A DNA stretch of 64,000 nucleotides, taken from Elusimicrobia bacterium GWA2_62_23. GTDB lineage: Bacteria > Elusimicrobiota > Elusimicrobia > Elusimicrobiales > UBA9959. The DNA is taken from positions 879 through 64,878 of the forward strand of contig MGTV01000008.1 in the NCBI GenBank assembly GCA_001799635.1. The letters run 5' to 3'. Below are positions 22,788-50,700 of the stretch, one piece after another; position 1 is the stretch's first letter, and the number at the start of each line of letters is the position of its first letter. A model generated the notes under the pieces. It saw only the letters and a program-made list of their open reading frames with translations. It was not told the origin of the DNA and did no database searches. A program made the position numbers and the translations under genes.

Positions 22788-22839
22788 GCCCATCGGGAAT
22801 CACTTTGACACCTGGACACCGGATTCGCGTTTTTACCCC

Positions 22840-22868: not shown

Positions 22869-22894
22869 ATGCCTAGTAACTCGGTATATCACGT

Positions 22895-33210: not shown

Positions 33211-33609
33211 TTACATCTTCCCGTATTCTTTCAAAGTCTTTTCGGCCAGGGCGCGCACCTGGGTCTGCTGCGTCAGCTTGGGCAGGAAGGCCTTGCAGAG
33301 CGGGTTCTTGCTGAACCCGTAGTTCAGGTCCATCTTCGAGAAATTCTCTCCGGTGAGGATGATGAACGGCACCGTCGCCAGTTCAGGGCGGCTGCGCGAA
33401 AGGTTCTTCACTTCTTTTATGAACTCCGTCCCGTCCATCACCGGCATGGAAATATCTATGAGCATGAGGTCCGGGATAAAGGTGTCCAGTTTTTCCAGGG
33501 CGTCCTTGCCGTCCTTGGCCAGCGCTGTCTCATGGCCGCCTTCCATGAAGACGAACTGGTACAGGGTCCGTATGGAATAGTCGTCGTCCACGATGAGGAT
33601 CTTTGCCAT
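33211..33609 (-). CDS. Single-domain response regulator (CheY-like)
   Basis: ILIVDDD...LMLIDISMPVMDG receiver motifs. Confidence 0.85.
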   Translation of the reverse strand: MAKILIVDDDYSIRTLYQFVFMEGGHETALAKDGKDALEKLDTFIPDLMLIDISMPVMDGTEFIKEVKNLSRSRPELATVPFIILTGENFSKMDLNYGFSKNPLCKAFLPKLTQQTQVRALAEKTLKEYGKM

Positions 33610-33613
33610 GCGT

Positions 33614-33988
33614 TTATTTCCCGAGGATCCGTCGCTCCAGCACCTTTACCCGCGCCACCAGCACGTCGTTGTCGAAGGGCTTGGTAAGGTAATCGTCCGC
33701 CCCGCGCTCATAGCCCTGCACCTGGTCCTCGGTGAAGGCCTTGATGGTGAGCAGCAGCACCGGCATATCCTTGAAACGCTCGTCGGAGCGGATGTGCCCC
33801 AGGAGTTCCAGGCCGTCCATCTCCGGCATATTGATGTCCAGCACGGCCAGGTCGGCGCCGCTTTCCTGCAGGGCTTCCCAGGCCAGGCGGCCGTTCTCGT
33901 GGGCGGACAGTTCGTAGCCCGCCTCGCCCAGGAGTTCCGTCACCAGCATCCTGAAAGTGTTATCGTCGTCGGCGACCAGGACTTTCAT
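33614..33988 (-). CDS. Single-domain response regulator (CheY-like)
   Basis: VLVADDD...LAVLDINMPEMDG...TKP receiver motifs. Confidence 0.88.
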   Translation of the reverse strand: MKVLVADDDNTFRMLVTELLGEAGYELSAHENGRLAWEALQESGADLAVLDINMPEMDGLELLGHIRSDERFKDMPVLLLTIKAFTEDQVQGYERGADDYLTKPFDNDVLVARVKVLERRILGK

Positions 33989-34000: not shown

Positions 34001-34723
34001 CTATTTCGCGCCTTCAGCCTTGTACATGTAGCCGGACCCGTATACGGTCTTCACGCACTTGCCGTACGGGCCCAGCTTGTGCCGCAGCGTTTCCACGTGC
34101 TTGTCGATGGTCTCGCAGTTGACCTGGCCGGACCGCTCCTTCCAGATCTCCTCCATCAAAAAATCCCGGGTGACCACGTGTTCCTCGTTGCAGACCAGCG
34201 TGGAGAGAATGTCGAATTCCTTGGGGGTGATGTTCTCCAGCTCGGCCGGGCGTTTTTTTTTGGCGCCGGTCAGGATCACGCGCTTCACGCGGTCTATCCG
34301 CAGGTCCCCGTTCCTGGAGACCACCAGCGTCCTCAGGCAGACCAGGCTGGGCAGGATGCGGCGCAGGTGGGCTTTTATCTTGGAAAGCAAAATGCGCTCG
34401 TCTATGTCGGCCATCACGAAATCGTCGGCGCCGGATTCCAGGAGCTCGGCTATTAGCGAATTGTCGGCCTTGTCCTTGGGGGCCACGGCTATGGCTGAAA
34501 GGTTCTTGCGTCCGGTTATGAAGGCTTTGAATTCGGCGGGGGAACGCAGGTCCGGCAGTCCCAGCGTTACCAGGGCCAGGCCCTTGCGGCCGTCGCTGGC
34601 CCGCGCCAGGTCCGCCAGGGTTTCCACGCGTTCCGCGCGCAGGCATTCCCTGGAAAAAAGCCGGTACCAGCTCTCAGAAAGCTTCTGGTCGCGGCAGGCT
34701 ATCCAAAGCGTGAAGTCCGTCAT
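34001..34723 (-). CDS. OmpR/PhoB-type winged-helix DNA-binding regulator with a degenerate (pseudo-)receiver domain
   Basis: C-terminal Trans_reg_C pattern (ITPKEFDILSTL...VDKHVETLRHKL...VYGSGYMYK). The N-terminal domain lacks the acidic pocket and has LVTLGLPD where the phospho-Asp would be. Confidence 0.7.
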   Translation of the reverse strand: MTDFTLWIACRDQKLSESWYRLFSRECLRAERVETLADLARASDGRKGLALVTLGLPDLRSPAEFKAFITGRKNLSAIAVAPKDKADNSLIAELLESGADDFVMADIDERILLSKIKAHLRRILPSLVCLRTLVVSRNGDLRIDRVKRVILTGAKKKRPAELENITPKEFDILSTLVCNEEHVVTRDFLMEEIWKERSGQVNCETIDKHVETLRHKLGPYGKCVKTVYGSGYMYKAEGAK

Positions 34724-34884
34724 ATCGGGTCCCGGAGTAAGCCCCCGGGGAATCTATTATAACTTATTAGCCGGGGCATAAAAACGGCCCAAAGTGAGCC
34801 GTCGAATTTAACAATCACGAAACAATTAATTCGGGATTTCTTCGGGATTGCCGCGGCTCCGGCCGCTATAATATCAATTAAATC

Positions 34885-35973
34885 ATGACGCACCGTGAAA
34901 ACCATTCCTCCCTGCGCCTCGCCGCCTCCGCCGCGGCGGCCTTTATTTTTGTCTTTTCCGGCTCCGCCCTGGCCGACATCTCCTCCGGCGGCGAATACGC
35001 CATAGAGTCTTCCGTGCTGGACGCCGGCGGCGGCGAGAAACTTAACGGGGGGGAGTACAGCGCCAAGGGTTCCCTCGCCCAGGTGTCCCTGCCCGAGAAC
35101 GCGGGCCTGTCGGTGGGCGGGGAATACGTGAACCGCGAAGGCTTCTATAACCCGCCCCACATGACCTTCCAGAAAGGCCTGGCCGCGGTCATGAGCATGC
35201 CTTCCGGCGAAATGACCATAGCCCTGCCTCCCGGTGCGGTGGACAAGGAACGCTTCGACATCACCATGAACAGGGACCCGCTGGCCTCTCCCCTGGCCGT
35301 GGACCCGGACAAGATAAACGAGGCCAACAGCAAGATAATCTATAACGAGGGGCCCTGGTCCCAGCTTTCTCCCGGCTCGCTGACCGAGATGTCCATTTTC
35401 GACGAACAGACCTTCTACACCAAGCCCCTGGCCGAAAAGGGCGTTCTGACCATGCGCTATCCCGACGTCAACAACGACGGCATCCTGGACGGCTCCAATC
35501 CTCCGGTCAGGGTTGACACCCTCAACGCCTGGACGCTGGACCAGAACCGCAACATGTGGATGCGCCTGCCGGATTTCGGCGCCGACACCTCCGCGCGCAC
35601 CCTCAGCGTTTACTTCGGCCTGCCCGGGGTTTACGCCGTGATAGGCGCCATAGACGATTCTGTGCGCGACGTCTTCGCCTTCCCCGTGCCTTTCCGCCCC
35701 AACGGCCCCCAGGCGGGCACCGGCCAGGGCCAGACCGGCACCGAGGCCGCGGGCATAACCTTTAGCAACGTTCCCCAGAGCGGCCGCATAGAGATCTACA
35801 CGCTGGACGGCAGGCTGGTGAGAAAGCTCGCCATCCCGGACAACCTGATACTCCCGGAGGTGAAGTGGAACGTGAGGACCGCCGGCGGCGAGCGCGCGGC
35901 CAGCGGGGTCTATATCTGGCGGGTGGTTTCCGGCGGCAACGCCAAGACGGGCAAGCTGATGGTGATCTGGTAA
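34885..35973 (+). CDS. Secreted protein with a C-terminal FlgD-Ig/T9SS-CTD-like beta-sandwich
   Basis: Signal peptide ending ALADIS. C-terminus GRIEIYTLDGRLVRKL...ASGVYIWRVVSGGNAKTGKLMVIW resembles Por-type/FlgD-Ig C-terminal domains. Confidence 0.6.
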   Translation: MTHRENHSSLRLAASAAAAFIFVFSGSALADISSGGEYAIESSVLDAGGGEKLNGGEYSAKGSLAQVSLPENAGLSVGGEYVNREGFYNPPHMTFQKGLAAVMSMPSGEMTIALPPGAVDKERFDITMNRDPLASPLAVDPDKINEANSKIIYNEGPWSQLSPGSLTEMSIFDEQTFYTKPLAEKGVLTMRYPDVNNDGILDGSNPPVRVDTLNAWTLDQNRNMWMRLPDFGADTSARTLSVYFGLPGVYAVIGAIDDSVRDVFAFPVPFRPNGPQAGTGQGQTGTEAAGITFSNVPQSGRIEIYTLDGRLVRKLAIPDNLILPEVKWNVRTAGGERAASGVYIWRVVSGGNAKTGKLMVIW

Positions 35974-35991
35974 AATAACGGGTTCGCACTT

Positions 35992-38046
35992 ATGAACATA
36001 ATGCAGGGACTGCTTAAAGGGAGGGCCGCGGGCGCAACGCTCCGCGGTTTGGCCCTTTTTGCCGTCCTGCTGGGCTGGGCGGCCGCCGCCTCGGCCGAGG
36101 TGCCGGTCAAGTTCACCTACCAGGGCAACCTGCGCCAGAACGGCTTCCTGGTGAACGGCACGCGCACCATCTCTTTCCGCATCTACGATTCGTCCAATCC
36201 CGTGAGTTCCACGCTGCTCTGGACCAGCCCTGATTATTCCTTACAGGTCTCCACCGGCGTTTTCCGCGCCTCCCTGGAACCTTCCGTTTCCGCCGCCGCC
36301 TGGCAGAGCGGCAGCCTCTGGCTGGAAATGACGGTGCAGGGCGTGGTCATGCTCCCCCGCGAGCAGATAACGGCTTCGCCGTACGCCGTAAACAGCCTGA
36401 TGCTGTCCGGCAAACGCTATACCACGGCCGCGGCGGCGCCTACCGTTCCCTCCCCGGCTACAGGCGACCTCTGGATGGACACCGGCAGCGGCGCCCTGAT
36501 GTATTACAGCGGCGGCTGGCTGCCCACCTCCGGCACCGGGCTGCCCGCGGACCACGCCGCCACCCATGCTTACGGCGGCAGCGATCCCATAGTCAACCTC
36601 GGGGCCCATACCGTAGATGGATATATAAATATATCCTCAGCCGTTAACGCGGCCTGGGTCACCGGCAACGGCGTAGGGCTGCACAGCCTCAACGCCTCCA
36701 ACCTGGCCTCCGGCACGGTGCCCGATATCCGCCTTTCGCCCAACGTGGACCTGCTGGACGCGGACCAGACCGCCGGCGGCCGCAAGACCTTCAGCAGCAG
36801 CTTTACCGTTACCGCCGCGGCCGGCCTCAGCGTGCCCCGGATCAGGCTCGGGGACGACGGCGTGGCCCTGTTCCAGGCGCCCGCCGTGCAGTACGGCGGC
36901 GTCTACGTCTCTACCAATATCTATACCCCCGTGAACATTTACGCCGCCAAATATTACGGCGACGGTTCCGCCCTGCTCGGCGTGGTGGGGGGCGACAGCC
37001 TTGGCACCCACGTGGCCACCCAGACCCTGAACATGGCCGGCTTCCCGCTGACCGGCGCGGGGGCCGTGACCGGTTCCTCCTTTACCGCGAGCGGCGCGGG
37101 CTTCTCCGGCGCGCAGCTCAGGCTGGCGGACAACGTCCTTATCTCCTCAGAGGCCTCCGCGGCGCTGGGGGGCGGCATACGCTTTTCCACCCACGTCTAT
37201 TCCAATAGCGATATCAGGGCCGCGCGCTTCATAGGCGACATTTCCGGAGCCTGGGGCCTTAACGGCGCGGACAACCTGGGTACCCACGTGGCTACCAGGA
37301 CCCTGGATATGAACGGTTTCGGCGTTTCCGGCGCGGGCCATGTGGCGGCTTCCTCTTTCTCCGCTTCCGGCACCGGGTTCCACGGCTCCGGCTCCAACCT
37401 TACCGGCCTGAACGCGTCAGCCATCACCCAGGGCACCCTTTACGGCGACCGGATAGGCAATGTCATAGTCTCCACCCATATAGTGGATTCCTCTCTCCAG
37501 ACGGACGACCTGGCCGACGGCGCGGTAGTGGCCTCCAAGCTGGGCGCCTTCGGCTGCGCCACCGGCGACATAATCCAGTGGGGCGGCAGCGGCTGGGTCT
37601 GCGGCAGCGGCGCCGCCGCCGGCGTTGAGACCGACCCGCTTTCCGTCCACAACACCGAACTGCAGGAAGGCACCACTTTCTACGTTTCCTCCGGTACGGC
37701 CACCAATCTTAACGTGGAGAATACCTTTACCGCTTACGGCATCGCCCGCCTGAAGGGAGCTCCCTCGGCCGAAGGGCTAACCGTGGACGCTTCCGGTAAC
37801 GTGGCCATAGGCCTGGCCGCCGCCGCGGCGCGCCTGGAAGTGAAAGGCGCCGAGAGCCAGTCCTATTCGCTGGCGGTGGGCACCGGCACCGCCCACCACG
37901 TGGTGGTCAGCACCGCCGGCTACACCGGCCTCGGTACGGATTCCCCCAGGGCCAGGCTGGACGTCACCTCGCCCGGGGCTTCCGGGGAGTATATAGCCAT
38001 TTTCAACTCGGGCCCCAAAGTTGCGGCCTGGTTGCGCAATAAGTAG
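35992..38046 (+). CDS. Secreted tail-fibre-like repeat protein (684 aa)
   Basis: Signal peptide. N-terminal VPVKFTYQGNLRQNG...FRIYD...LWLEMTV...PYA domain, HAATHAYGGSDPI motif, two G(D)xLGTHVATxTLxMxGF motifs, C-terminal GLGTDSPRARLDV...AAWLRNK. Confidence 0.7.
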   Translation: MNIMQGLLKGRAAGATLRGLALFAVLLGWAAAASAEVPVKFTYQGNLRQNGFLVNGTRTISFRIYDSSNPVSSTLLWTSPDYSLQVSTGVFRASLEPSVSAAAWQSGSLWLEMTVQGVVMLPREQITASPYAVNSLMLSGKRYTTAAAAPTVPSPATGDLWMDTGSGALMYYSGGWLPTSGTGLPADHAATHAYGGSDPIVNLGAHTVDGYINISSAVNAAWVTGNGVGLHSLNASNLASGTVPDIRLSPNVDLLDADQTAGGRKTFSSSFTVTAAAGLSVPRIRLGDDGVALFQAPAVQYGGVYVSTNIYTPVNIYAAKYYGDGSALLGVVGGDSLGTHVATQTLNMAGFPLTGAGAVTGSSFTASGAGFSGAQLRLADNVLISSEASAALGGGIRFSTHVYSNSDIRAARFIGDISGAWGLNGADNLGTHVATRTLDMNGFGVSGAGHVAASSFSASGTGFHGSGSNLTGLNASAITQGTLYGDRIGNVIVSTHIVDSSLQTDDLADGAVVASKLGAFGCATGDIIQWGGSGWVCGSGAAAGVETDPLSVHNTELQEGTTFYVSSGTATNLNVENTFTAYGIARLKGAPSAEGLTVDASGNVAIGLAAAAARLEVKGAESQSYSLAVGTGTAHHVVVSTAGYTGLGTDSPRARLDVTSPGASGEYIAIFNSGPKVAAWLRNK

Positions 38047-38084
38047 CGCCGGTTTTAGTACAGGGAAAGTCACAAGGAGGCAGT

Positions 38085-39230
38085 ATGATGAGAAGCATAA
38101 CCAGGTTTATAGCGGCTCTCGCTATAATCCTCGCGGCGGGGGCCCCGGCCTTCGCCGACAATGATACGGAGTTCGGCATCGAGGACGACCTCACGGTGCT
38201 GGGCACGGCGGGCACGGCGGCGGACCCGGACCTTGAAGTGAAGGGCTTCACGGTCTTCGGTTCTACGCTGTCCACGCCGGGGCTGCAGATCCCGGCGGCG
38301 CCCGGGAACATATTCGCCAACGGATATGTTCAGGTCTCCAGCGGCCTTTACGTGGGAGGCAACTCCACGTTCACCGCCTACGGGTTCTTCCAGAGCACGG
38401 TGACCATGGTGGAAGGCAACCTGAAATACGGCAGCGGCGTGGCCGGCAAGGTGATGAAGAGCGGCGGAGACGGGTTCGTCTACTGGGCGGACGATGAAAC
38501 CGGCCTGGCGGCGCTCTCCGGTACGCCCTACTACCTCCGCATGGAGAACGCGGCGGGCAACAGCATTGTGGACTCGCGGCTGGTGCAGAACGCGGCCTCC
38601 ACGAACATCACCCTGATAGGCGGTTCTTCGCTGACCGTTACCGGGGCTATGGGGGTGGACGGCGCCCTTAACGTCGGCGGGATCCTTACTTCCGCGGGCT
38701 ACGGCGTCTTCCAGAGCACGGTGCAGTTCCTGAACAATACCGGGGACGTCACCAACCTCTACTTCAACAACGGCGCCGCCAACGCGGGCAAGGTACTGAA
38801 GGCCGCCTCCGACGGGTTCCTCTACTGGGGCCAGGACAACGACAGCGTCCTGGGCATGGGCACGGCCTACCGCCTGCAGATGGTGAACGCGGCCGGGGAC
38901 GCCCTGGAGAACTCCGCGTTCCTCCAGAACGCGTCCGGCAGCAACATTACCATGGTGGCCGGCAGCTCACTAACGGTCAACGAGCTACTGGTACAGGGCG
39001 ACGCGGAACTGCTCGCTAAAATAAGCGTGGCAGGGGCCGCCACGTTCGTCTCCAGCATGACCGTCCGCGGCAATACCCAGTTCGGCGACACCACCGCGGA
39101 CATCCACGCCCTTAACATGGCCCCCGAGACCGGGGTCGGCCTGTCGGTGAACAGCAGCGGCACCGGCGGCAATTACGCGGCCAAGTTCTATTCCGGCGGT
39201 TCCCTGGCCGCCTGGATAAAGAAGAAGTAA
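38085..39230 (+). CDS. Secreted fibre-like protein (381 aa) with an internal ~90-aa duplication
   Basis: AGGAGG Shine-Dalgarno and a signal peptide. The N-terminal domain is shared with the 1419-aa protein (DNDTEFGIEDDLTVLG..EVKGFTVFG). Repeats at 38376-38645 and 38700-38978. C-terminal ...AAWIKKK. Confidence 0.7.
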   Translation: MMRSITRFIAALAIILAAGAPAFADNDTEFGIEDDLTVLGTAGTAADPDLEVKGFTVFGSTLSTPGLQIPAAPGNIFANGYVQVSSGLYVGGNSTFTAYGFFQSTVTMVEGNLKYGSGVAGKVMKSGGDGFVYWADDETGLAALSGTPYYLRMENAAGNSIVDSRLVQNAASTNITLIGGSSLTVTGAMGVDGALNVGGILTSAGYGVFQSTVQFLNNTGDVTNLYFNNGAANAGKVLKAASDGFLYWGQDNDSVLGMGTAYRLQMVNAAGDALENSAFLQNASGSNITMVAGSSLTVNELLVQGDAELLAKISVAGAATFVSSMTVRGNTQFGDTTADIHALNMAPETGVGLSVNSSGTGGNYAAKFYSGGSLAAWIKKK

Positions 39231-39341
39231 GCGGTCATCATACTCCTCCTTGGTGCCCGCCGGGATTCCCGGCGGGGGTGGGTCGGGTTAAAGAAAACTT
39301 AAAAGACGGGTCAAATTGATTAAAGATATAATTTAAAACTT

Positions 39342-42300
39342 ATGTTTAGAGGCGGAAGATCGAAAAAAACCATATTTGCCGGCGCCGCGTGCGGCGTCTT
39401 CTTCCGCTTTTCCCTGGCAGCCCTCCTTTTTTCACTGTTTTTTGTCCCCGCGGCCCGGGCCCAGAACAATACCGAATTGGGCGCGGAGGACGACTTTACG
39501 GTTTTGGGCATTGACGGCGTGGCCGCGGATCCCGACGCGGAAATAAAGGGTTTTACGGTCTTCGGCGCCACGCAGACAGCCTACCCGGGAATAGCGGCCG
39601 GGCCCGGCAACGTGGCCGTGAACGGCTTCCTTTCGGTCTCTTCCGGCGCCTATTTCGCCAAAACCGCCACTTTTACGGCCCTGGGCAATATTTTCGTGAA
39701 CGACGGCACTTCCGGCTATTACGTGCGCAAAAACACCGGCGGCTGGCTGGAATGGGGTACCCCTGATTCCATAGGCGACAGCCTGGGGCTCCACGTGGCC
39801 TCGCAGACGCTGAACATGGCCGGGTTCAGCCTCGTCAACGCGAGTTCCATTAATTATCTCTCCAATGTTTACCTGACCAGCGCGCCTGCGGCCCAGTATG
39901 GCGGCCTGTACGTATCAACGCACGTATACACCCCTGGCAGCGTCTACGCCTTCAAGTATTACGGCGACGGCTCTGCGCTTGCCGGCCTGCCGCAGGGCGA
40001 CAGCCTGGGCACGCATGTAGCCACGCAGGCGCTGAACATGAACGGGTTCGGTGTGTTCAACGCGGGGGGGCTGACGTCGAACGGTCAGGCCACGGTGTAT
40101 TCGTCGGCGACTATTTTGGGGCTTACGGGCGTTAAGGACCTGTACGCGGCGGGTATTTCAAGCTTTACGTCGTCGGTTTACTTCACGGGTGTTAGCAGTT
40201 ACAGCAGCGTGGCGAACGTGCACTACGCGGGTGGCAACCCCGGGCAGGTGCTGACCAAGGTGGAAGGCGGCGGCATGCAGTGGAGCACGCCTTCGTCGCT
40301 GGTATCGGGCGACAGCCTGGGTTCGCACGTGGCCACCAAGACCCTGGACATGGCCGGGTTCGCTATAACCGGAGTTTCCACGGTTACGGTCAGTTCCATA
40401 ACCACCACCGCCGCCGGGCTGACGGTCAGCACCCACCTTTACGTTATGAACGGGGATCTGGGCGTGGGAACTTCCCAGCCGCGCGCCAGGGCTGATGTGA
40501 CCGGCAACGAGCTGCGCCTGGGCCCGGTGGGCTATCCTGCCTCTTATTCCGTGACCAATAGCGGCTACCTGGTAATAGACAAGAGCGGCACCGCCGGCGA
40601 CGCCTCCATAGTCTTTCGCGACCAGGGGAACGCCCGGGCGGAGATCGGCATAGTGACCGATAACGATATTCATTTCAAGACCGTGACCGGCTCCTACGGC
40701 TCAGAAACCTTCACCGACCGGCTGCTAATCCGCGGCACCGGCGAGGTGGACGCTTTCGGCCTGCTGCGCTCCTACGCTACCAGCGGCGTGGCCCGGGTCT
40801 TCGCCGGGAACAGCGACGGCGCCACCGCGGGGGCGGCGCTGGAACTGAGTTACGATTTCGGTTCTTCGCTCTCGCGCATAACCAGCATAGAACGCGGCAA
40901 CGTTTACCGTGACCTGCTGGTGGAGGGGAATAACCTGCGCTTCCAGACCGGCTCCGCCGCCCTGGCTGAAGCCATGCGTGTGACTACCGAAGGCACCGTG
41001 GGCATAGGCAATACGCTGCCCCTCGCCCGCCTGGACGTGGTCTCTACCGGCACGGCCAGTAATATCTACGCGCAGGTGTGGCGCAACGGCGGCGGAGTGG
41101 TGGTGGCTTCCATGACCTCGCAGGGCATACTGCACGCTACCCTGGCCCCAGGTGTGGGCGACAATATGGGCAACCACACCGCCACCAGGGACCTGGACCT
41201 GGCCCAGTTCGGTATCTCCAACGTTTCCACCATCAGCGCCACCGGTCTCTACATAAGCGGCTACGGTGTGATACAGACCACCGGTACCGGCCTTGGCGGC
41301 GTGGCCGTAAATCCCCGTGGCACGGGCGCCGTGGACCTGCAGACCTACCGCACCGCGACTTCCCAGGTGGCTTCGGGCGATTACTCTTTCATCGGCAGCG
41401 GCCGGGAGAACACTACCGACGCCGATTACGCCTTTATAGGCGCCGGCTACAACAACACGGTTTGGGCTTTTGGCGGCGTTATAGGCGGCGGCCGCAATAA
41501 TTCATCTGAGGGCATGTATTCCGCAGTAGGCGGCGGCTATGGCAATACCGCCGGACAGGGCGCCTGGGGCGACACCGTGGCCGGTGGCGAATCTAATACC
41601 GCCATGGGCGGCGCCAGCGCCATAGGCGGCGGTTACCTGAACATCATCAACAACTACAGCGAGAGCGTCATAGCCGGAGGTTCTTATAACGGCATTTCCG
41701 CCAGCTATGCCGCCATAGGCGGCGGTACCGGCAACAGCGTAACGGGTAATTATGGCGTAGTCCCTGGCGGTTCCTATAACACCGCCAAGGGTGCCTACAG
41801 CTTTGCCGCCGGCCGTGGTTCTTCCTCCACGGCCAGCGGCGCGTTCACCTGGTCTGACTCCAATGTCTGGGTGGAGACCGTGAATAATGTCCCTAACCGC
41901 ACATGGTTCAAGAATATAGGCGGGTTCCTGGTGAGCGGGTCCACCAATACGGCCATGACCGGCCTGCTGGATCGCGGCCTGCTGGTGACAGGCGCGGGGC
42001 GAGTGGGTATTTCCACGGGGACCCCCGGGGCCGCGCTGGACGTTGTGGCGGATGGTTCCGCGGCTACGGATTTCGCCCAGATATGGCGCAACGCCTCCGG
42101 AGTGGAAGTGGCCTCCATGAGCGCCACCGGCGTGCTGTACGCCACCTTGCCTCCAGGTACCGGGGACGACCTGGGCAACCACACGGCCACGGCGGACCTG
42201 AACATGGCCGTGCACAGCGTCGTGGGCGTGGCTTCCATGACCATGGTAGGCAAAGGCCTGCAGATAGGCACGGACCTTACCGCTTCTGCCAGCGGCGTCT

Positions 42301-43601
42301 TAATCTCTACCTCTGGGCAGATCATTACGCTGGGCCCGGGCAACGGCACGGCTGCGCCCGGCGCGCGTGGCCATGGCGCAGTAGATCTGCAGAATTACAG
42401 GACCGACGCCTCTTCGGTGGCGGCCGGTGCCTATTCCGTGGTTGGCGGCGGCCGCAACAACAGGGCCGCAGGTCCTGATTCCGTGGTGGCCGGCGGCCTC
42501 AATAATACGGCAGCGGCCGGAGACTATAACACAGTTTCCGGCGGTTCGGGCAACAGGGCTTCAGGGGCCTGGGCCGCCACTATAGCCGGCGGCGACACAA
42601 ACAGCGCGCTCGGCGCGGCCTCTACCGTTTCCGGCGGCCTTGAGAACGCTGTTGCGGACTACTATTCGGTGGTGGCCGGCGGCTACCGCAATACCGCCAC
42701 CCTGGAGGGCGCCTCGGTATCCGGCGGTACCAATAACTCGGCGGACGGCTATTATTCCGCCGTTCTCGGCGGCAGCTATAACTGGGCCATAGGCGATTAT
42801 TCCGTGGTGGCCGGCGTTTCCAACCTGGCCGTGCAGAACGAGTCCGCGGCCCTCGGCGGCTCGGATAATATAGCTGGCGGTTTCGCTTCGGTCGTCCTCG
42901 GCGGCGAGAATAACGTGGCAGGAGGCAACTACTCTTTCGCGGCGGGCCTCAAGTCCTCTTCCACGGCCGAAGGTTCCTTTACCTGGTCGGACGCCGAAGG
43001 GACCTATAATTACAACTCCGTGGCCAACCGCACCGTGTTCAAGAACCGCGGCGGCTTCCTGGTTACCGGGTCCACCAACCCTGCCATGACCGGCCTGCTG
43101 GACCGCGGTATGCTGGTGACCGGCGCGGGGCGCGTGGGTATTTCCACGGGGACCCCCGGGGCCGCGCTGGACGTTGTGGCGGACGGTTCCGCGGCTACGG
43201 ATTTCGCCCAGATCTGGCGCAACGCCTCGGGCGTGGAAGTGGCCTCCATGAGCGCCACCGGCGTGCTGTACGCCACCCTGCCGCCCGGTACCGGCGACGA
43301 CCTGGGCAACCACACGGCCACGCAGAACCTGAACCTCAACACTTTTAATATCGTCAACGCCTCCTCCGCCACTTTCAGCCAGGCCGTTACCGTCTATTCC
43401 AGCGTGACCGTGGCCGGCAGTGCGTTCAGCGTGGGCGGCTCCACCCTTACGGTGAACAGCGGTAAAGTGGGCGTGGGCCTGGATAACCCCACTTACAAGT
43501 TCGAAGTGAAGGATAACGCTACCACTTTCCAGGTGAACCCTCAGGGCGGTTACGTAAGCCTGCTGGTGGGGGGAGTGGAAGTGGCCAGGATGAAGCCGTA
43601 G
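39342..43601 (+). CDS. Large secreted fibre/adhesin-like protein (1419 aa): neck modules plus YadA-head-like GGxNNxAxGxxSxV repeats
   Basis: Signal peptide, six DxLGxHxATxxLxM motifs, three ALDVV...IWRN..GVxVASM neck modules, and two ~377-aa tandem super-repeats rich in GG-x-NN-x-A-x-G repeats. Confidence 0.75.
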   Translation: MFRGGRSKKTIFAGAACGVFFRFSLAALLFSLFFVPAARAQNNTELGAEDDFTVLGIDGVAADPDAEIKGFTVFGATQTAYPGIAAGPGNVAVNGFLSVSSGAYFAKTATFTALGNIFVNDGTSGYYVRKNTGGWLEWGTPDSIGDSLGLHVASQTLNMAGFSLVNASSINYLSNVYLTSAPAAQYGGLYVSTHVYTPGSVYAFKYYGDGSALAGLPQGDSLGTHVATQALNMNGFGVFNAGGLTSNGQATVYSSATILGLTGVKDLYAAGISSFTSSVYFTGVSSYSSVANVHYAGGNPGQVLTKVEGGGMQWSTPSSLVSGDSLGSHVATKTLDMAGFAITGVSTVTVSSITTTAAGLTVSTHLYVMNGDLGVGTSQPRARADVTGNELRLGPVGYPASYSVTNSGYLVIDKSGTAGDASIVFRDQGNARAEIGIVTDNDIHFKTVTGSYGSETFTDRLLIRGTGEVDAFGLLRSYATSGVARVFAGNSDGATAGAALELSYDFGSSLSRITSIERGNVYRDLLVEGNNLRFQTGSAALAEAMRVTTEGTVGIGNTLPLARLDVVSTGTASNIYAQVWRNGGGVVVASMTSQGILHATLAPGVGDNMGNHTATRDLDLAQFGISNVSTISATGLYISGYGVIQTTGTGLGGVAVNPRGTGAVDLQTYRTATSQVASGDYSFIGSGRENTTDADYAFIGAGYNNTVWAFGGVIGGGRNNSSEGMYSAVGGGYGNTAGQGAWGDTVAGGESNTAMGGASAIGGGYLNIINNYSESVIAGGSYNGISASYAAIGGGTGNSVTGNYGVVPGGSYNTAKGAYSFAAGRGSSSTASGAFTWSDSNVWVETVNNVPNRTWFKNIGGFLVSGSTNTAMTGLLDRGLLVTGAGRVGISTGTPGAALDVVADGSAATDFAQIWRNASGVEVASMSATGVLYATLPPGTGDDLGNHTATADLNMAVHSVVGVASMTMVGKGLQIGTDLTASASGVLISTSGQIITLGPGNGTAAPGARGHGAVDLQNYRTDASSVAAGAYSVVGGGRNNRAAGPDSVVAGGLNNTAAAGDYNTVSGGSGNRASGAWAATIAGGDTNSALGAASTVSGGLENAVADYYSVVAGGYRNTATLEGASVSGGTNNSADGYYSAVLGGSYNWAIGDYSVVAGVSNLAVQNESAALGGSDNIAGGFASVVLGGENNVAGGNYSFAAGLKSSSTAEGSFTWSDAEGTYNYNSVANRTVFKNRGGFLVTGSTNPAMTGLLDRGMLVTGAGRVGISTGTPGAALDVVADGSAATDFAQIWRNASGVEVASMSATGVLYATLPPGTGDDLGNHTATQNLNLNTFNIVNASSATFSQAVTVYSSVTVAGSAFSVGGSTLTVNSGKVGVGLDNPTYKFEVKDNATTFQVNPQGGYVSLLVGGVEVARMKP
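41940..42203 (+). repeat. Near-identical coding repeat, copy A (partner 43071-43334, offset 1131 bp = 377 codons)
   Basis: Base-by-base comparison by eye gives roughly 20 mismatches over ~264 bp, almost all at third codon positions. Confidence 0.85.
43071..43334 (+). repeat. Near-identical coding repeat, copy B
   Basis: See copy A. Confidence 0.85.
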
Positions 43602-43636
43602 TTCCGCAGACGTGCTTTAACGCGTGAGGATAATTT

Positions 43637-44182
43637 ATGAAGACCCTGTGTTCAGCTCTCTTTTTCGCGGCGATCTTTGCCGCCGTACCGGCTGCGGCCG
43701 CCGATACCGAGGATACCCTGCGGGCGCAACTCAAATCGGCCTCTACGCCTGAGGCCAGGCGCGCTATCATGGACCAGATAAAGCAGGCCCGCGCGGTTTC
43801 CCGTCCCGCCGCCGCGCCCGCGGCCCAGGCGGACCCCGCCGCCCGCCGGGCCAGGATGGAAGAATCTCTGAAGGACGATCCCGAGCGCCTGGCCGAATTC
43901 CGCCTGCAAGAGTCCCTGCGCGCCGCCAGGACCCCGGAAGACCGCGCGGCCATACGCAAGCAATTGGAAGAGAAACGCGCCGCCCGCGCCGCGAAGGCGG
44001 AGGCCGCGTTGACCCCGGAGCAGAAAGCCGTGCGCGCCCAAAGAGCGGCCCAGGCCGCCGCCATGCGCGCCGAAATGCAGCCGCTCAGGGAGCGCCTGCG
44101 CGCCGCCGCTACGGAAGCGGAGCGCGATTCCGCCAGAGAGGCCCTGCGCGCGGTGCAGGAAAAGTACCGTGCCAAGCCTTGA
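43637..44182 (+). CDS. Secreted Ala/Arg/Glu-rich helical protein, possibly Spy/CpxP-like (LTxxQ)
   Basis: GAGGA Shine-Dalgarno, signal peptide, highly helical low-complexity sequence, one LTPEQ motif. Confidence 0.45.
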   Translation: MKTLCSALFFAAIFAAVPAAAADTEDTLRAQLKSASTPEARRAIMDQIKQARAVSRPAAAPAAQADPAARRARMEESLKDDPERLAEFRLQESLRAARTPEDRAAIRKQLEEKRAARAAKAEAALTPEQKAVRAQRAAQAAAMRAEMQPLRERLRAAATEAERDSAREALRAVQEKYRAKP

Positions 44183-44213
44183 GGTGACTTAAAGTTTTAT
44201 TGGAGATAAACGG

Positions 44214-47200
44214 ATGAACCTAGTAACTTGCGCCAGATCGAGGGTCCCCGGGAGAAGGCATGTCTTCTTCTGGGCCTTGGCGCTTGTCCTGGCGGCCCTG
44301 CCCGCTCTTAATGCCGCTGAATTCGAGACGGTGGATAAGCTTACCGCTAATGGTTTCTCCCTGTTGAAGTCCTCCGCCGAGGTACGCGGCCTGCTGGGTG
44401 TTTCCACCGGCGTGCCTTACGCCGCCCTGGACGTGGTCTCCACCGGTACGGCCTCCAATATCTACGCGCAGATCTGGCGCAACGGCGGCGGTGTGGAAGT
44501 GGCTTCCATGACTTCCACCGGCGTGCTCTACGCCACCTTCCCGCCCGGCGCCGGCGGGGACCACCTGGGCAACCACACCGCTACCGCCGACCTGAACATG
44601 ACGGCGCACAGCGTCCTTTCCGTGGCCTCGGTGACCATGGTGGGAACCGGCCTGCAGCTAGGCACGGACCTCACCTCTTCGGCTAACGGCCTCTTTATTT
44701 CCACCGCCGGCCAGGTCTTTACGCTGGGTCTTGGTAACGGCGCGGCGCTGCCTAACGCTCGCGGCATCGGGGCGGTAGACCTGCAGACTAAACGCACAAC
44801 TTCCGTGCAAGTGGCCAGTGGGACCTATGCGGTCATCTCGGGCGGCTACGCCAATACCGCTTCCGGAGACGCCGCGGCAGTGGCCGGCGGCTGGGGAAAT
44901 ACCGCTTCAGGCCTCAGGTCTTTTGCCGCCGGCAACGGCAATACGGCTTCCGGAGCGTATGCTTCGGTGACCGGCGGCACCGACAGCACCGCCTCTGGCA
45001 GCCACGCCGTGATAGGAGGCGGCAACACCAACGAGGCGTCCGGTGACCATTCAGCGGCGCTGGGCGGCCTGTGGAGCACGGCTTCCGGCAATTACAGCGC
45101 GGTAGGCGCAGGCTATCAAAATACCGCATCGGGCAGTTACAGTTCCGTCCTTGGCGGTAATACCAATACGGCCGCCGGCGGCTCGTCCACGGTGTTCGGC
45201 GGCGAGGAGAATGTGGCGCAGGGTTTCGGTTCCCTGGCCGGCGGCATGGGGTACAACTACGCCGGCGGAGATGACTCCATAGTCCTGTCGGCCTATAGCA
45301 CCACTACCGCTTATGGTTCCGCCATAGTGGGCGGCGAGGACCATTTCGCCAGCGGCGACCATTCCGCGGTAGTGGGAGGCTATGACAATACTGTCTCGGG
45401 GGACCAGGCTTTTATCGGCGGCGGCGACACCATAGACGTCAGGGGAGAGTATTCGGGGAACGTGGGCGGCCGCTACAATATCGTGCACGGCAGCAATTCA
45501 TTCGTGGGCGGCGGCAGCAATAACCAGGCTTTCGGATTCTATACCGCCATACTTGGCGGAGATTTTAACTGGGCCTACGCCAACGAGTCCGCCGTTGTCG
45601 GCGGCAACGCCAACGGCGCTTACGGAGAGGCGTCCGCCATACTCGGCGGCGTTAATAACCGGACCTATGGTTTTGGCTCTATAGTTCTCGGCGGCGACCG
45701 CAATCACGCCGCCGGCGACTATTCGCTCGCGGCCGGCCGCACCTCCTCTTCCACCGCCAATGGTTCCTTTACCTGGGCCGATTCTCAGGGCGGGACCACT
45801 GTAAGGACCATAAACAATATAGCGGACCGCACTTTATTTAAGAACCGCGGCGGTTTCATGATAACAGGTTCCACCAATACCTATATGACCGGGGGCGGTG
45901 ACCGGGGCGTGCTCGTGACCGGCGACGGTCTGCTGGGCATTTCCACCGGCGTGCCTTACGCCGCCCTGGACGTGGTTTCTTCGGCCACCGCCAGCAACGT
46001 TTACGCTCAGATCTGGCGCGACGGGGGCGGCGTCATAGTGGCGTCCATGACGTCGCAGGGCACGCTTTTTACCACCGCGGTAGGCAAAGGCGACAACCTG
46101 GGCAACCACACGGCCACGCAGAACCTGAACATGGTCGCCTTCGGGGTCAATACTTCCAGCGCCGTTACTGCGGCGTCTTACCAGATCGCGGGCAGCACGG
46201 TGCTAGCCATCCTTGGGGGAGACGGCAGCATCGCGGTGGGCCCCAATTCCAGCGCTTTCAGTACCGGCAACTACAACGTTTTTGTGGGTTCCGGCGCCGG
46301 CCACTCCAACACCAGCGGCCGCCGCAACACCTTTGTGGGCGCCGCCGCCGGATATTCCAACGATAACGACCAGATCAACACCTTTATCGGCTCGGAGTCC
46401 GGCTACAGCAATAACGCCGGTTGGGGCAATGTTTTTGTGGGAGATACCGCCGGCTATTCCAACACCAGCGGCTCCGAGAATACCATCATGGGCGGTTACA
46501 TGACGGGTTACGAGAATACCAGCGGTTGGGGCAACGTCTTCCTGGGTAACTACTCCGGGCAGAGCAATACCGAAGGAGACAAGAACACCTTTATCGGCTA
46601 CGGCTCCGGTGAGTTCAATGTCACGGGAGAAGGCAACGTCGCCGTTGGCTACAGCGCTGGTGACGCCAATGAGGCTGGCTCATTTAACGCCATTCTGGGA
46701 CATGAGGCAGGCTACAGTGTGGAAAGTTCCAGCAACACGCTCATGGGGTACCGTTCCGGATACAACCTGTGGACGGGCGGCAGGAATATCCTTCTGGGCT
46801 ATCAGGCCGGTTACAACTTGGAATCCGGAGCCGGTAATATCGTTATAGGCTACGACAGGAACGCCTCCGCGGAGAACGCTTCTAACGAACTTAACATCGG
46901 TGACGTCCTGTTCGGTAAACTGGACGACAGGACCATCGGCATCTCCACGCGCGTGCCGCAGGCGGCTTTGGATATCGTCTCCACCGGGACTGCGGCCAAT
47001 GTCTACGCGCAAATCTGGCGCAACGGCAGCGGTGTGGTGGTGGCGTCCATGACGTCGGAAGGCAAGCTCTTTGCCGACGGTTCCGGGCTTACCGGGGTGA
47101 ACGCGGCCACCGGCGGCACCGGGGGGGACAACCTGGGCACGCATATAGCTACACAGACCCTTAACATGTCCGGTTTCGATATCGTAGGGGTAGCGACAAT

Positions 47201-47705
47201 AACCGTTTCTGGCTATGTCGGCATTAGCACAGCGGTCCCGCAGGCGGCCCTGCATGTGGTGGGCGGAGGGGCTTCCTATGCCAACGCGCTTATAGTGGAT
47301 ACCCAGAAGGCCGACGGCGGGACCATAATCCTCGGCAATGATAGTGATTCCGGGGACCAGGTCCGTGTGGGCGTTAACGGGTACCTGCGGTCCCAGGCAG
47401 GTCGTTTTGGTATAGATACCACCGGTAATCCGCTTACCTTCGAGATATCCGAGTCGGAAAAAATGCGCGTAGCCGCCAGCGGGGCGGTGGGTATTGGAAC
47501 TAACAACCCTCTGGCGGGACTGGAAGTGAGGTCTTACTCTGACGGCAATTACACGGCCGTGGTGTCCACCTCAGCCACCGCGGGGATATACAGCGTAGCC
47601 GTGAGTTCGACCGGCATCACGCACGTGAACAATTTGGTGATCGAGAATCGCACTTCGGACCCTGCTGCCCCGGTTACGGGCCAGATCTGGTTCCGGGTGG
47701 ATTAG
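44214..47705 (+). CDS. Large secreted fibre/adhesin-like protein (1163 aa) with neck modules, YadA-head-like repeats and a ~15-aa GxxNTFxGxxAGYSN repeat array
   Basis: Signal peptide. Neck modules near 44400, 45940, 46940 and 47230. Three DxLGxHxAT motifs. About 13 tandem 15-aa repeats at about 46240-46860. Confidence 0.75.
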   Translation: MNLVTCARSRVPGRRHVFFWALALVLAALPALNAAEFETVDKLTANGFSLLKSSAEVRGLLGVSTGVPYAALDVVSTGTASNIYAQIWRNGGGVEVASMTSTGVLYATFPPGAGGDHLGNHTATADLNMTAHSVLSVASVTMVGTGLQLGTDLTSSANGLFISTAGQVFTLGLGNGAALPNARGIGAVDLQTKRTTSVQVASGTYAVISGGYANTASGDAAAVAGGWGNTASGLRSFAAGNGNTASGAYASVTGGTDSTASGSHAVIGGGNTNEASGDHSAALGGLWSTASGNYSAVGAGYQNTASGSYSSVLGGNTNTAAGGSSTVFGGEENVAQGFGSLAGGMGYNYAGGDDSIVLSAYSTTTAYGSAIVGGEDHFASGDHSAVVGGYDNTVSGDQAFIGGGDTIDVRGEYSGNVGGRYNIVHGSNSFVGGGSNNQAFGFYTAILGGDFNWAYANESAVVGGNANGAYGEASAILGGVNNRTYGFGSIVLGGDRNHAAGDYSLAAGRTSSSTANGSFTWADSQGGTTVRTINNIADRTLFKNRGGFMITGSTNTYMTGGGDRGVLVTGDGLLGISTGVPYAALDVVSSATASNVYAQIWRDGGGVIVASMTSQGTLFTTAVGKGDNLGNHTATQNLNMVAFGVNTSSAVTAASYQIAGSTVLAILGGDGSIAVGPNSSAFSTGNYNVFVGSGAGHSNTSGRRNTFVGAAAGYSNDNDQINTFIGSESGYSNNAGWGNVFVGDTAGYSNTSGSENTIMGGYMTGYENTSGWGNVFLGNYSGQSNTEGDKNTFIGYGSGEFNVTGEGNVAVGYSAGDANEAGSFNAILGHEAGYSVESSSNTLMGYRSGYNLWTGGRNILLGYQAGYNLESGAGNIVIGYDRNASAENASNELNIGDVLFGKLDDRTIGISTRVPQAALDIVSTGTAANVYAQIWRNGSGVVVASMTSEGKLFADGSGLTGVNAATGGTGGDNLGTHIATQTLNMSGFDIVGVATITVSGYVGISTAVPQAALHVVGGGASYANALIVDTQKADGGTIILGNDSDSGDQVRVGVNGYLRSQAGRFGIDTTGNPLTFEISESEKMRVAASGAVGIGTNNPLAGLEVRSYSDGNYTAVVSTSATAGIYSVAVSSTGITHVNNLVIENRTSDPAAPVTGQIWFRVD

Positions 47706-47773
47706 CCCGGCAGCGGGACGGGCAGCGACGTGCCGGGTTTTCGAACAGAAAACTGGCCTCTTCCCGCTTTTTA

Positions 47774-50700
47774 ATGTACGTCATGAACGAGTGCAGATAT
47801 AACAACCGTTGCTCTCGCTCCCGTATCCGTATGGGAGCGGTTTTTGCCGCTTTGTTGTTATCGTCTGTTCTTTTTGCGCCTGAGGGGGTTCGCGCGCAGG
47901 CCGTTCCGGACGGTATAGTTTCCTCCAAGTCCACCTCAACCTGCCATAATACCAATTCTTTTAATTTCTATTCGTCCTTCTCTGGAGCTTCCTATTACCG
48001 CTATGTCTGGGATACCAGCCCTACCCATACCTGGACGCACGCGGAAACCCAGTGGAGTTCCGGAGTCCTTAACCTTACGGCCGCCTCCGAAGGAACCTGG
48101 TATTTTCACGCTATGGCGTATGACAGCGGGGGGGTGCCGGGAACGGATATTCACCTGCCTCTGATCTACGATATCACTCTCCCTGTCGTTTCAGGTTTTT
48201 CCAGCCTGAATTCATCCGGCGGGACCGTGACCGAAAGCCAGTACAATAACCTGGCTTCCGGGGTTACCGTACAGATCACCGTGCAGGACGCTCTGGCGGG
48301 CCTGATAGTGACCACCGCTGCGGTACCTGGCGACATGCTCGGATTTCCCGGGGGGGTCTCCGTGGCGTATTCCAACGACGCCGGGCGTAACTGGGCCTAC
48401 GACACTGTAGTTTTAAGTTCTGATGGCGCTAAAACTTCGATCTTCTGTCTGGCAGTCTACAACGGCAGACTTTACGCCGGGCAGACTGGCAGCACTGGGG
48501 ACGGTGACGTGCTGGTATATGATGGCTCTTCCTGGAGCGTCAGCTACAACGGGTCCCAGACCGGTATCTACTCCCTGGCGGCCTATAACGGCAAACTTTA
48601 CGCTGGGCAAGGTCAGGGCACCGGGCTTGGAGATATTTACGTTTTCGACGGTGCCTCCTGGTCCCTTAATTACGACACTTCACGCGATATCACAATATCC
48701 ATGGCCGTTTATAACGGCAAACTCTACGCAGGCTGGGGCGACGACCTTGGAGAGGGTGACATCTATGCCTATGACGGCACTTCCTGGGTTTTTAGTTACA
48801 ACGGCGGCCAAGAGTATATACGTGCCCTGGCGGTATACAATAACAAACTTTACGCCGGGCAGGGCAGCGGCACTGGAGACGGCGACGTGCTGTCATACAA
48901 CGGGACTTCCTGGGGAACCAGTTATAATGGGGCACAGGAATACATAACATCGCTTTCGGTCTACAACGGCAAACTCTACGCCGCCCAGGGCAGCAGTACC
49001 GGAGACGGTGACGTATTTGTTTATGACGGTTCCTCGTGGACAACCAGTTATAACGGTTCGCAGGAAGTTGCCTACTTGGGGGTCTACGGCGGCAAATTGT
49101 ACGCGGGTGAGGGCACGGGCACTGGTGACGGCGATATGCTGGCTTTCGACGGGACCCGCTGGGGCCGCGTCGCGAATACGGATTATTCCTATGTTTACGC
49201 CCTCACGGGTTATGATGGGAGTCTCTTCACAGCCATGGGGAGCGGCACTCCCATGGGAGATATTTTGCGTTCGGCCCCTGCCGCCCCGGCAACGCTGACC
49301 GGTACCGACGGCACCACGGCGGCGCAGACCCTGTCGGCGGTGGTAAGTCTTTCCGCGTCCACCAATACGCAGACCTGCGCCGGGGCGGAGCCCTGCGGGG
49401 CCACCAACCAGGTGATCTTTACCGCCATGGACAGGGCCGGGAACGTGCGCCGCGCCGGGCCCTACGCGGTGCTGCTTTCCGTTACTCCTTCCGCGGCCGA
49501 GGTGGTTCCGGGGAAATCCACCGGGGTCTGGTACCATACCAGTTCCTTTACTTTTTCCTCGTCTTTCAAGGACGCGGCGTATTACCGGTACGCCTGGGAT
49601 ACTTCCGCCACCCATTCCTGGACTTATTCGGAACCGCAGTGGACGGCCTGGGTACTGTCCCCGGCCGGAGTTTCAGGGGCCGCCGGAAACTACCTGCACC
49701 TGCTGCCGTACAACATCGAGGGGACTTACGGGACCTCCCGGGATATAGGGCCGTTCTATCTGGACGCCTCTTCCCCGGTGGCGTCCGGCTTTGTCAGTTA
49801 CAGCTCTACCGCCGGCGTAATGGGTGAGGCCCAGGTGAATGGCCTGCTTTCCGGGGTCACCGTGCAGGTGACGGTTCAGGACATTCTCTCCGGCCTGTTG
49901 CTCAGCACCGCGGCGGTGCCGGCGGACCTGGCGGCCGGGCCCGGCGGTTTCGGGATGATGTATTCACAGGATTCCGGAACCACCTGGACGGTGAACGTGG
50001 CTTCCGTGTCCTTTGACGGTGCTGAAGAATATATCTTCGCGCTGGCGGCCTACAACGGGAAACTTTACGCGGGTCAGGGGAACGGGACCGGCAACGGGGA
50101 CGTTTATGTCTACGACGGAGTTTCCTGGAGCCTCAGCTATGACGGCGCCCAGGAAGCCATCTATTCCCTCGCCGTCTATAACGGCAAATTATACGCCGGA
50201 CAGGGATACAGTACCGGTGACGGGGATGTGCTGGTTTTTGACGGGTCGACCTGGGGCGTTTCTTTGGATAACCCTTTTGTTTCTTATGTTTACGCCATGA
50301 CCGAGTTCCAAGGTAAGCTATACGCCGCCTTCAGTAGTCCCGGATCTGTCTATTCTTTTGACGGGTCCTCCTGGACCAAGGTCTACGACTACAATACCAC
50401 GCTCGCCGACATGGCGGTGTACGACGGTAAACTGTACCTGGCCGCCATGTATTATATCCTGGTTTTCGACGGCAACTATTGGGGGATAACCTATGACGCC
50501 GGCGCTACGTATGTAAAGAAATTGGCCGTTTACAACAACAGGCTTTACGCCGGCCTTGGGGGTAGTACCGGTACCGGCGACGTGCTGGTGTACGACGGCA
50601 AGTCCTGGGCGATGAGTTTTGACGGTACCCAGGAATACATTGTTTCTCTCTTTCCTCACGACGGCAGGCTTTACGCCGGCCAGGGGAGCGGCACTGGGGA

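Follow-up and report, generated by a model that had tools for sequence, protein, structure and literature searches.

In a 64,000-nt stretch of the genome of Elusimicrobia bacterium GWA2_62_23 (contig MGTV01000008.1; hereafter the window), which stems from a groundwater metagenome, six genes on the + strand encode a genuine, so far uncharacterised fibre system that is probably located on the cell surface. We refer to the genes as p362, p684, p381, p1419, p181 and p1163, after the lengths of their products in amino acids (aa); the protein p362 is identical to A2049_04460. We consider it reasonably probable that the genes constitute a regulated operon, part of a wider regulon, for Sec-exported, beta-rich and modular fibres acting as adhesins with exchangeable tips. 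Every protein of the operon is currently annotated as hypothetical, and we found no description of the operon in a literature search. Coordinates are window positions unless a related locus is named by its L-number, and those of the individual features are collected in Table 1.

Conservation and control of the operon

To place the genes in a wider context, we scanned for synteny around the p381 family, using one genome per species. This yielded 57 loci, all of them in Elusimicrobia, of which 33 keep the same core: a divergent 124-aa receiver and a 240-aa OmpR/PhoB-type regulator on the opposite strand, and on the + strand, in this order, a p362 homologue, a short fibre (270–430 aa), a p684-like protein (400–720 aa) and at least one long fibre with a p1419-type N-terminus. 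Order and content are kept although the fibre sequences diverge to 30–60% identity. A preliminary description, made from the letters of the window alone, had proposed a dedicated locus, and this is what we found: the genes are not scattered in related genomes, and the 33 loci share a promoter motif and the divergent regulator. Conservation of the operon extends across Elusimicrobia and, judging by the named sequences, no further than this phylum. The Elusimicrobiaceae loci L019, L020 and L027 suggest that gut relatives carry it as well. Fibre paralogues also stand alone at other loci, including in the genome studied here.

Directly upstream of p362, two copies of TTCGGGATT (34830–34838 and 34841–34849, 11 bp from start to start) are followed, after 17 nt, by a perfect TATAAT −10 box (34867–34872), which lies 12 nt before the p362 ATG. 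The tandem repeats, TTCGnGATT in general form, thereby occupy the −35 box position of the p362 promoter. This composite motif is present in a single copy in the window, with 0 expected. Its 14-mer ATTTCTTCGGGATT is exactly conserved in 29 loci, where the proteins are down to about 55–60% identity. Across loci, the motif consists of TTCGnGATT twice, 11 bp apart, N17 and TATA(A/C)T (e.g., at L008 5389, L026 8799 and L052 7331). It occurs at 40 sites in 874 kb, all in gene orientation (+ strand): 29 before 362-aa homologues, 8 before fibre genes and 3 before other genes. Some of the 8 fibre-gene sites belong to loci without the core operon, that is, to stand-alone fibre genes, and this distribution suggests a fibre regulon under the adjacent OmpR/PhoB-type regulator.

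The regulator itself aligns over aa 25–237 with MtrA, RegX3 and PhoB-family structures, while its receiver part is too divergent for the Pfam model. It is kept directly upstream of the 362-aa gene in related loci, and in most of them the 124-aa receiver gene adjoins it. Since 11-bp direct repeats replace the −35 box next to a conserved OmpR/PhoB-family neighbour, the arrangement resembles a pho-box-type activated promoter, and we infer that the regulator would bind the TTCGnGATT repeats. The one motif copy in the window fits a cluster driven from a single upstream promoter, though the 111-nt gap between p381 and p1419 may hold an internal one.

Reading frames and gaps were exactly as first described: from p362 to p1163 the genes are separated by 18, 38, 111, 35 and 31 nt, and a further 68 nt lead to a giant open reading frame (ORF). 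The preliminary description had also seen no terminator hairpin, either between the genes or before the giant ORF, a claim that holds with two small qualifications. A terminator scan detected no canonical terminator in any gap. The 111-nt gap nevertheless contains a perfect 9-bp G+C hairpin lacking a U tract, which the scan did not flag, with a TATAAT downstream of it (39327–39332, 9 nt before the p1419 start); together, these could be an attenuator plus an internal promoter. The 68-nt gap, likewise not flagged, is able to form a structure (z-score only −0.89) whose terminal U5 abuts the ATG of the giant ORF. No fibre-type promoter motif is present in this gap.

Two related loci add observations on control. 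In L020 (11778–13556), a copy of the fibre promoter motif precedes the gene for a 576-aa protein that has tetratricopeptide (TPR) repeats and an N-terminus weakly resembling PorV (22.9 bits; cutoff 27 bits). In L003 (416–9863; GWA2_61_42), a second fibre pair follows genes for an extracytoplasmic function (ECF) sigma factor and a FecR-like protein as well as one that weakly matches UPF0164. The promoter motif is missing from this pair, an indication that some fibre loci are controlled by another circuit.

Modular architecture of the fibres

The four large proteins (p684, p381, p1419 and p1163) share long local alignments, with E-values from 1e-8 to 1e-101. Together with the repeated motifs described below, these bear out the proposal that the four derive from a shared kit. 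The fibres are built from interchangeable modules: three N-terminal types, connectors composed of a neck and a histidine (His) motif, heads, a phage-like block and variable tips. The His motif GDxLGxHxA(T/S)xxLx(M/L)xx(F/H) occurs 11 times in p684, p1419 and p1163, as previously counted, with 10 strict copies and one ADNL variant in p684, compared with 0.0 in 2000 shuffles. Likewise, all six full necks were recovered at the expected sites (DNA positions 40991, 41996, 43127, 44387, 45926 and 46928; 0.0 in 2000 shuffles), and DNA repeat families sit at the same coordinates. The degenerate necks noted at the C-termini of p684 and p381 were confirmed by alignment, and p1419 has one as well; all three C-termini are truncated neck modules that end just past the neck hairpin. 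The N-terminal domain common to p381 and p1419 was also verified (31% identity, E = 3e-27).

Blocks of GGxNNxAxGxYSxV repeats had been likened to the YadA head. In agreement with this, they match the UspA1 head structure 3pr7 in both p1419 (E = 4.7e-14) and p1163 (E = 8e-15), two proteins rich in Gly, Ala, Ser, Thr and Asn, a composition that speaks against a coiled coil. Within the p1419 gene, a 300-nt segment (43026–43325) is 91% identical to positions 41895–42194, with a 168-nt core at 95%, which indicates a recent internal duplication or gene conversion of the head-end and neck module. Besides its one head block, p1163 holds one phage-like repeat block: aa 620–925 match phrog_6002 (1.5e-27) and the tail spike phrog_4636 (8e-8), and tblastn with this block returned 32 phage records (best 2e-25). 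In IMG/VR, one contig matched.

When we extended the analysis to homologues, the combination of neck and His module was found in 394 of 1.84 billion representative proteins, with as many as 16 copies in a single protein. All named members belong to Elusimicrobia, and the module is absent from the non-Elusimicrobia homologues examined. Our expectation that the His motif would be common in Bacteroidota S74 proteins was thus not borne out. For p381, there are 104 homologues, the named ones all from Elusimicrobia except a single protein from a metagenome-assembled genome labelled ‘Proteobacteria’; W377 and K381 are invariant across this family. Across 120 homologues, we distinguished three types of N-terminus and at least six types of C-terminal tip, which recombine freely. 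Elusimicrobia homologues of p1163 are annotated as hypothetical. More distant ones, which bear the name ‘tail fiber domain-containing protein’, come from taxa labelled Bacteroidales, Portibacter, WOR-3 and Kapaibacterium and contain S74, UspA1_rep, YadA_head or Collar domains. Homologues pass the Pfam cutoffs for UspA1_rep and YadA_head, Peptidase_S74 is present in the distant homologues P0028, P0063, P0067 and P0104, and relatives carry Lcl_C, FGE-sulfatase, Collar, phiTE_241_C or S74 domains.

In the window proteins themselves, searches of Pfam, NCBIfam and PHROGs with all six mostly gave no match. No YadA-type anchor barrel was matched in any of the six by Pfam at E-values up to 1, Peptidase_S74 is absent from all six (Pfam), and p684 has no Pfam, PHROG, phage or PDB match. 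In p1419 and p1163, DUF2477 (28 bits) covers a neck region and 2CSK_N (31 bits) the signal peptide and first neck; both hits exceed their cutoffs, but we treated them as compositional false positives. We also discarded an ice-binding role, as the LbR_Ice_bind matches are below cutoff and reflect the beta-roll repeat, not an antifreeze function.

Signal peptides had been claimed for all six proteins, and a heuristic search (12-aa hydropathy of the core 2.3–2.7 plus an AxA-like site) agrees: all seven N-termini, those of the six proteins and of the giant ORF, are signal-peptide-like and combine a basic n-region with a hydrophobic core and an AxA-like site. An AlphaFold2 (AF2) model of p381, with a predicted local distance difference test (pLDDT) score of 74, shows an extended chain with two small beta domains, a terminal hairpin and no long helix; the conserved N-terminus is unmodelled. 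Its top structural neighbours are phage fibre chains, at weak scores. The N-terminal segments of both p381 and p362 are conserved yet have pLDDT values below 50 as monomers, which fits folding only within a complex.

Table 1 Positions of the annotated features in the 64,000-nt window, sorted by start
Feature	Positions	Strand	Description	Evidence or remark
Two single-domain response-regulator receiver genes	33211–33988	−	132 and 124 aa	Pfam Response_reg 5e-17 and 1.2e-29
Regulator gene	34001–34723	−	OmpR/PhoB-family response regulator (240 aa), divergent	Trans_reg_C at 4e-19
Promoter element	34830–34872	+	TTCGGGATT twice, N17, TATAAT	Motif search, conservation
p362	34885–35973	+	362 aa; N-terminal GGxY region, central beta-sandwich, type IX secretion system (T9SS) type A-like C-terminal domain	ORF; TIGR04183, AF2, Foldseek
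p684	35992–38046	+	684 aa; type C N-terminus (TYQG motif), two His-motif modules, neck-like C-terminus ending AAWLRNK	ORF
His motifs of p684	36991–37044, 37267–37320	+	GDSLGTHVATQTLNMAGF (first copy)	
p381	38085–39230	+	381 aa; type B N-terminus (DNDTEFGIEDDLTVLG), two 107-aa repeats, neck-like C-terminus ending AAWIKKK	ORF
Hairpin in 111-nt gap	39256–39276	+	Perfect 9-bp G+C hairpin, no U tract	Not flagged by terminator scan
p1419	39342–43601	+	1419 aa; type B N-terminus, six His motifs, three necks, two UspA1-like head blocks, neck-like C-terminus	ORF
His motifs of p1419	39774–39827, 39996–40049, 40308–40361, 41157–41210, 42162–42215, 43293–43346	+		
Neck 1 of p1419	40991–41141	+	GIGNTLPLARLDVV...YAQVWRNGGGVVVASM	Repeat family D1
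Head block 1 of p1419	41319–41921 (approximate)	+	UspA1/YadA-like, 15-residue repeats	
Neck 2 of p1419	41996–42146	+		
Head block 2 of p1419	42369–42986 (approximate)	+	UspA1/YadA-like	3pr7 E 4.7e-14, query aa 1029–1251
Neck 3 of p1419	43127–43277	+		Repeat families D1, D2, D4
p181	43637–44182	+	181 aa; secreted Ala/Arg/Glu-rich helical protein	ORF; signal-peptide-like N-terminus
p1163	44214–47705	+	1163 aa; type A N-terminus (AEFETVDKL), three necks, three His motifs, C-terminal tip ending GQIWFRVD	ORF
Necks of p1163	44387–44537, 45926–46076, 46928–47078	+		
His motifs of p1163	44556–44609, 46089–46142, 47124–47177	+		
Head block of p1163	44781–45803 (approximate)	+	UspA1/YadA-like	3pr7 E 8e-15; repeat positions
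Phage-like repeat block of p1163	46191–46898	+	NTFxGxxAGxxNTxG repeats	Common to phage virion and tail-fibre proteins
68-nt gap before giant ORF	47706–47773	+	Folds to −24.9 kcal/mol	
Giant secreted ORF	47774–64000 (runs off window)	+	5586 aa on full contig	

Accessory proteins and neighbouring genes

The preliminary description had counted six secreted repeat proteins. Four are indeed repeat-built fibres; p362 and p181 are accessory proteins instead. The best conserved protein of the operon is p362, with 243 homologues, all about 360 aa long; the 120 listed share 54–80% identity, and every named member is from Elusimicrobia. Its C-terminal 70 residues match the T9SS model TIGR04183 (26.2 bits; cutoff 23), as do 50 of the 50 family members scanned, while the four fibres and p181 lack such a domain. 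An AF2 model (pLDDT 69) comprises the beta-sandwich and the C-terminal domain, the conserved N-terminal GGxY region being unmodelled. With this model, Foldseek retrieved PorZ at 3.8e-5 and the C-terminal domains of T9SS substrates (8qb1, 8glj and 8glk) at root-mean-square deviations of 3.0–3.4 Å. The same C-terminal fold is also that of FlgD immunoglobulin (Ig)-like domains. We additionally considered p362 as a tip pilin of the PamT type, but the match proved too weak for that: the PamT model (NF058579) gives 12.9 bits, far below its cutoff of 240, over a region that includes the signal peptide (aa 13–69; 34885–35100). Weak PamT matches in the N-terminal region were obtained for 25 of 50 family members, the best at 6.5e-5. 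For p181, no family match (Pfam and NCBIfam; a Nif11 hit was noise) and no PDB match were found. Homologues directly follow a p1419-type fibre in L026 (14865–15419; 3e-43) and L059 (4920–5432; 5e-15), and a role as a periplasmic helper is possible.

Downstream of p1163, the giant ORF comprises 11 tandem units of 360–545 aa in the window. Eight of these have about six propeller blades each (GKLYAGQG...GDGDV), three have a lectin-like domain instead, and each unit closes with a CxGxxPCGATNQV motif. The cluster had been described as feeding into this giant gene. This holds for one other genome, in which a giant-like gene follows a p1163-like fibre (L045; 2e-61); where the sequence behind the core operon is visible, the next gene varies. 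Kelch propeller proteins with a Por_Secre_tail flank fibre genes in L003 and L005. Fibre genes are also followed by members of a secreted family of 1217–1227 aa (51% identity between the two copies, no Pfam match), one at the second fibre locus of the genome studied here and the other behind the GWA2_61_42 core operon (L004 14136–17819; L007 15857–19510). Taken together, these neighbours point to large secreted proteins, several of them propeller proteins, as partners that recur without being fixed. Two scans of metagenome contigs with exact patterns, aimed at the 3′ end of the giant gene and its downstream region, gave no match.

The flanks of the locus are ordinary chromosome, with genes for hydrogenase maturation (hyp), trehalose synthesis, Fic, AbiEii, an M23 peptidase, a SurA-like protein, an ABC transporter, a deacetylase and regulators. 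We found no phage genes in these flanks (no sheath, tube, baseplate or capsid genes) and no secretion-machinery genes, T9SS included, within the window. The Fic and AbiEii (type IV toxin–antitoxin) genes, at 21753–24323, have the trehalose genes on one side and the M23 peptidase gene on the other, in a region where G+C falls to 0.55.

Interpretation and comparison with known systems

If our favoured interpretation is correct, the regulator would bind the repeats, as PhoB binds the pho box, and switch on the fibre regulon. The fibres would then fold as homotrimers in the periplasm, like YadA heads and phage fibres, before export and display on the cell; there they would act as adhesins, module swapping would diversify their distal parts, and the strongly conserved N-terminal domains would serve as common docking ends. 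In this scheme, p362 could act through its T9SS-type C-terminal domain as an anchoring or assembly partner, the helical p181 as a periplasmic helper and the giant propeller protein as a co-expressed surface partner. Candidate routes across the outer membrane are a T9SS-like piggyback or type II secretion, as for Legionella Lcl. Several observations weigh against such a scheme. None of the fibres carries a known outer-membrane anchor, a T9SS domain or any export signal beyond Sec, and no report of a T9SS in Elusimicrobia was found in the literature searched. With a hairpin and a TATAAT in the 111-nt gap and a U5-ended structure before the giant ORF, the transcripts could also be separate or attenuated. 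Nor does the giant gene always adjoin the core operon, as the next gene downstream varies where it is visible. Finally, the Foldseek matches of p381 are weak (E = 0.6 against the PDB; 3e-4 against viral models, with a template modelling (TM) score below 0.2).

The export step invites an explanation in which p362 is the sole true secretion substrate and carries or tethers the bound fibres in a T9SS-like piggyback, the giant and Kelch proteins taking the same route. This would account for the T9SS-type domain on p362 and agrees with the Por_Secre_tail Kelch proteins beside fibre genes in L003 and L005, the weakly PorV-like TPR protein behind the same promoter motif in L020 and, immediately ahead of the L003 fibres, the gene weakly matching UPF0164. 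We nevertheless regard it as unlikely, given that the window has no T9SS machinery gene, that the literature searched is silent on a T9SS in this phylum, that the fold of this p362 domain is shared with FlgD Ig-like domains and that the PorV match is below its Pfam cutoff. Alternatively, the fibres might never leave the envelope and act as periplasmic tethers, or tethers on the inner face of the outer membrane, rather than as adhesins. The Sec signal is the only export signal found, and the basic WIKKK, WLRNK and ARMKP C-termini could conceivably bind anionic envelope polymers; adhesin-type heads and variable lectin-like tips in relatives, however, point to external ligands, and rapid module shuffling is unusual for internal scaffolds, so that we find this idea distinctly improbable. 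The six genes could also encode independent paralogous surface proteins that are merely adjacent and have no joint function, as the stand-alone paralogues at other loci and the candidate internal signals of the 111-nt gap would allow. Against this speak the single promoter motif in the window and, above all, the synteny, which is maintained in 33 loci despite the divergence of the fibres and leaves such a coincidence a very small chance.

Both of the better-known fibre types that the modules call to mind are barely credible as explanations. The UspA1 matches of the head repeats would suit trimeric autotransporter adhesins (type Vc) with unusual ends, yet none of the four fibres has a YadA-type anchor barrel, which already contradicts this identification; their C-termini are neck hairpins or tip domains, and the p381 model is without a long coiled coil. 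Similarly, aa 620–925 of p1163 match phage tail-fibre and virion proteins, and distant homologues carry S74 and the name ‘tail fiber domain-containing protein’, as a domesticated prophage, tailocin or contractile-injection tail-fibre cassette might. This one block is the only phage-matching part: every protein has a signal peptide, S74 occurs in none of them, p684 is without a phage match, only a single viral contig (IMG/VR) was matched, and the flanks hold housekeeping genes and regulators instead of sheath, tube, baseplate or capsid genes. We therefore do not read the proteins as phage tail fibres.

Returning to a regulated operon for modular surface adhesins, a bolder version of it is that the locus represents an undescribed Elusimicrobia class of surface fibre, neither pilus, autotransporter nor phage part, that combines the promoter regulon and OmpR-type regulator, p362 as anchor or assembler and trimeric fibres that dock by their common N-terminal domains and carry exchangeable tips. 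We put this forward tentatively and think it somewhat more apt to be wrong than right. If true, it would be a cellular counterpart of the swapping of phage receptor-binding proteins, and giant propeller proteins might be working partners of the fibres. Groundwater, sediments and animal guts widely harbour Elusimicrobia, about whose cell surface almost nothing is known. Few features around these genes are as conserved as the operon (p362 identity among the 120 listed homologues; 14-bp core in 29 loci). Should our model be right, it would show how these bacteria build and regulate adhesive fibres, and would reveal a new way to export and anchor YadA-like heads without an autotransporter barrel as well as a natural tip-swapping system in cellular fibres. 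The regulon can be tested directly through its promoter motif and regulator, and the motif also serves to find more members in any Elusimicrobia genome.

Compared with characterised systems, the accessory protein, the lineage-specific connector and the dedicated promoter and regulator are distinctive, whereas fibrous adhesins assembled from YadA-like and phage-like modules are of a known kind. Like the YadA/UspA1 autotransporters, the window fibres are Sec-dependent, have 14–16-residue head repeats (GGxxNxAxGxxSxV) that match the UspA1 head structure in sequence, and place a short neck connector after each head. Unlike them, they have no C-terminal anchor barrel, which argues against trimeric autotransporters, and the p381 model shows no coiled-coil stalk; their necks belong to a different sequence family, and the variable end is C-terminal, not N-terminal. 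With phage tail fibres and S74 proteins they share a modular build, conserved N-termini and swappable C-terminal tips, and one p1163 repeat block is homologous to phage virion and tail-fibre proteins; distant homologues end in S74. They differ in having signal peptides, no S74 and no phage context, and their neck and His module was not found in the non-Elusimicrobia homologues examined.

Legionella Lcl is a collagen-like trimeric adhesin secreted by type II secretion. It is similarly a Sec-exported fibrous adhesin without a membrane anchor, and its Lcl_C domain occurs in Elusimicrobia relatives of the fibres; the window proteins, in contrast, have neither collagen repeats nor Lcl_C. The likeness to T9SS cargo and PorZ lies in the C-terminal 70 residues of p362, which score above the TIGR04183 cutoff and can be superposed on T9SS C-terminal domains of known structure. 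Outside this region, p362 bears no relation to known cargo, the fibres are without the domain, and the T9SS machinery is so far unreported in the phylum in the literature searched. In Candidate Phyla Radiation (CPR) bacteria, PamT is the tip pilin of donor-strand Pam pili (bioRxiv 10.64898/2026.03.03.709456). That system resembles ours as an operon of Sec-exported appendage proteins in an uncultivated lineage, with the weak PamT matches in half of the scanned p362 family (25/50); it differs in that our locus has no chaperone-like or pilin-like genes and its PamT scores fall far short of the cutoff (12.9 vs 240 bits). With respect to control, the closest parallel is the class II promoter of the PhoB/OmpR type (pho box), which likewise has two direct repeats with 11-bp periodicity at the −35 position; here, too, the repeats lie 17 nt upstream of a good −10 box and beside an OmpR/PhoB-family regulator gene. 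A cognate kinase was not identified, and the repeat sequence itself, TTCGnGATT, bears no relation to that of the pho box.

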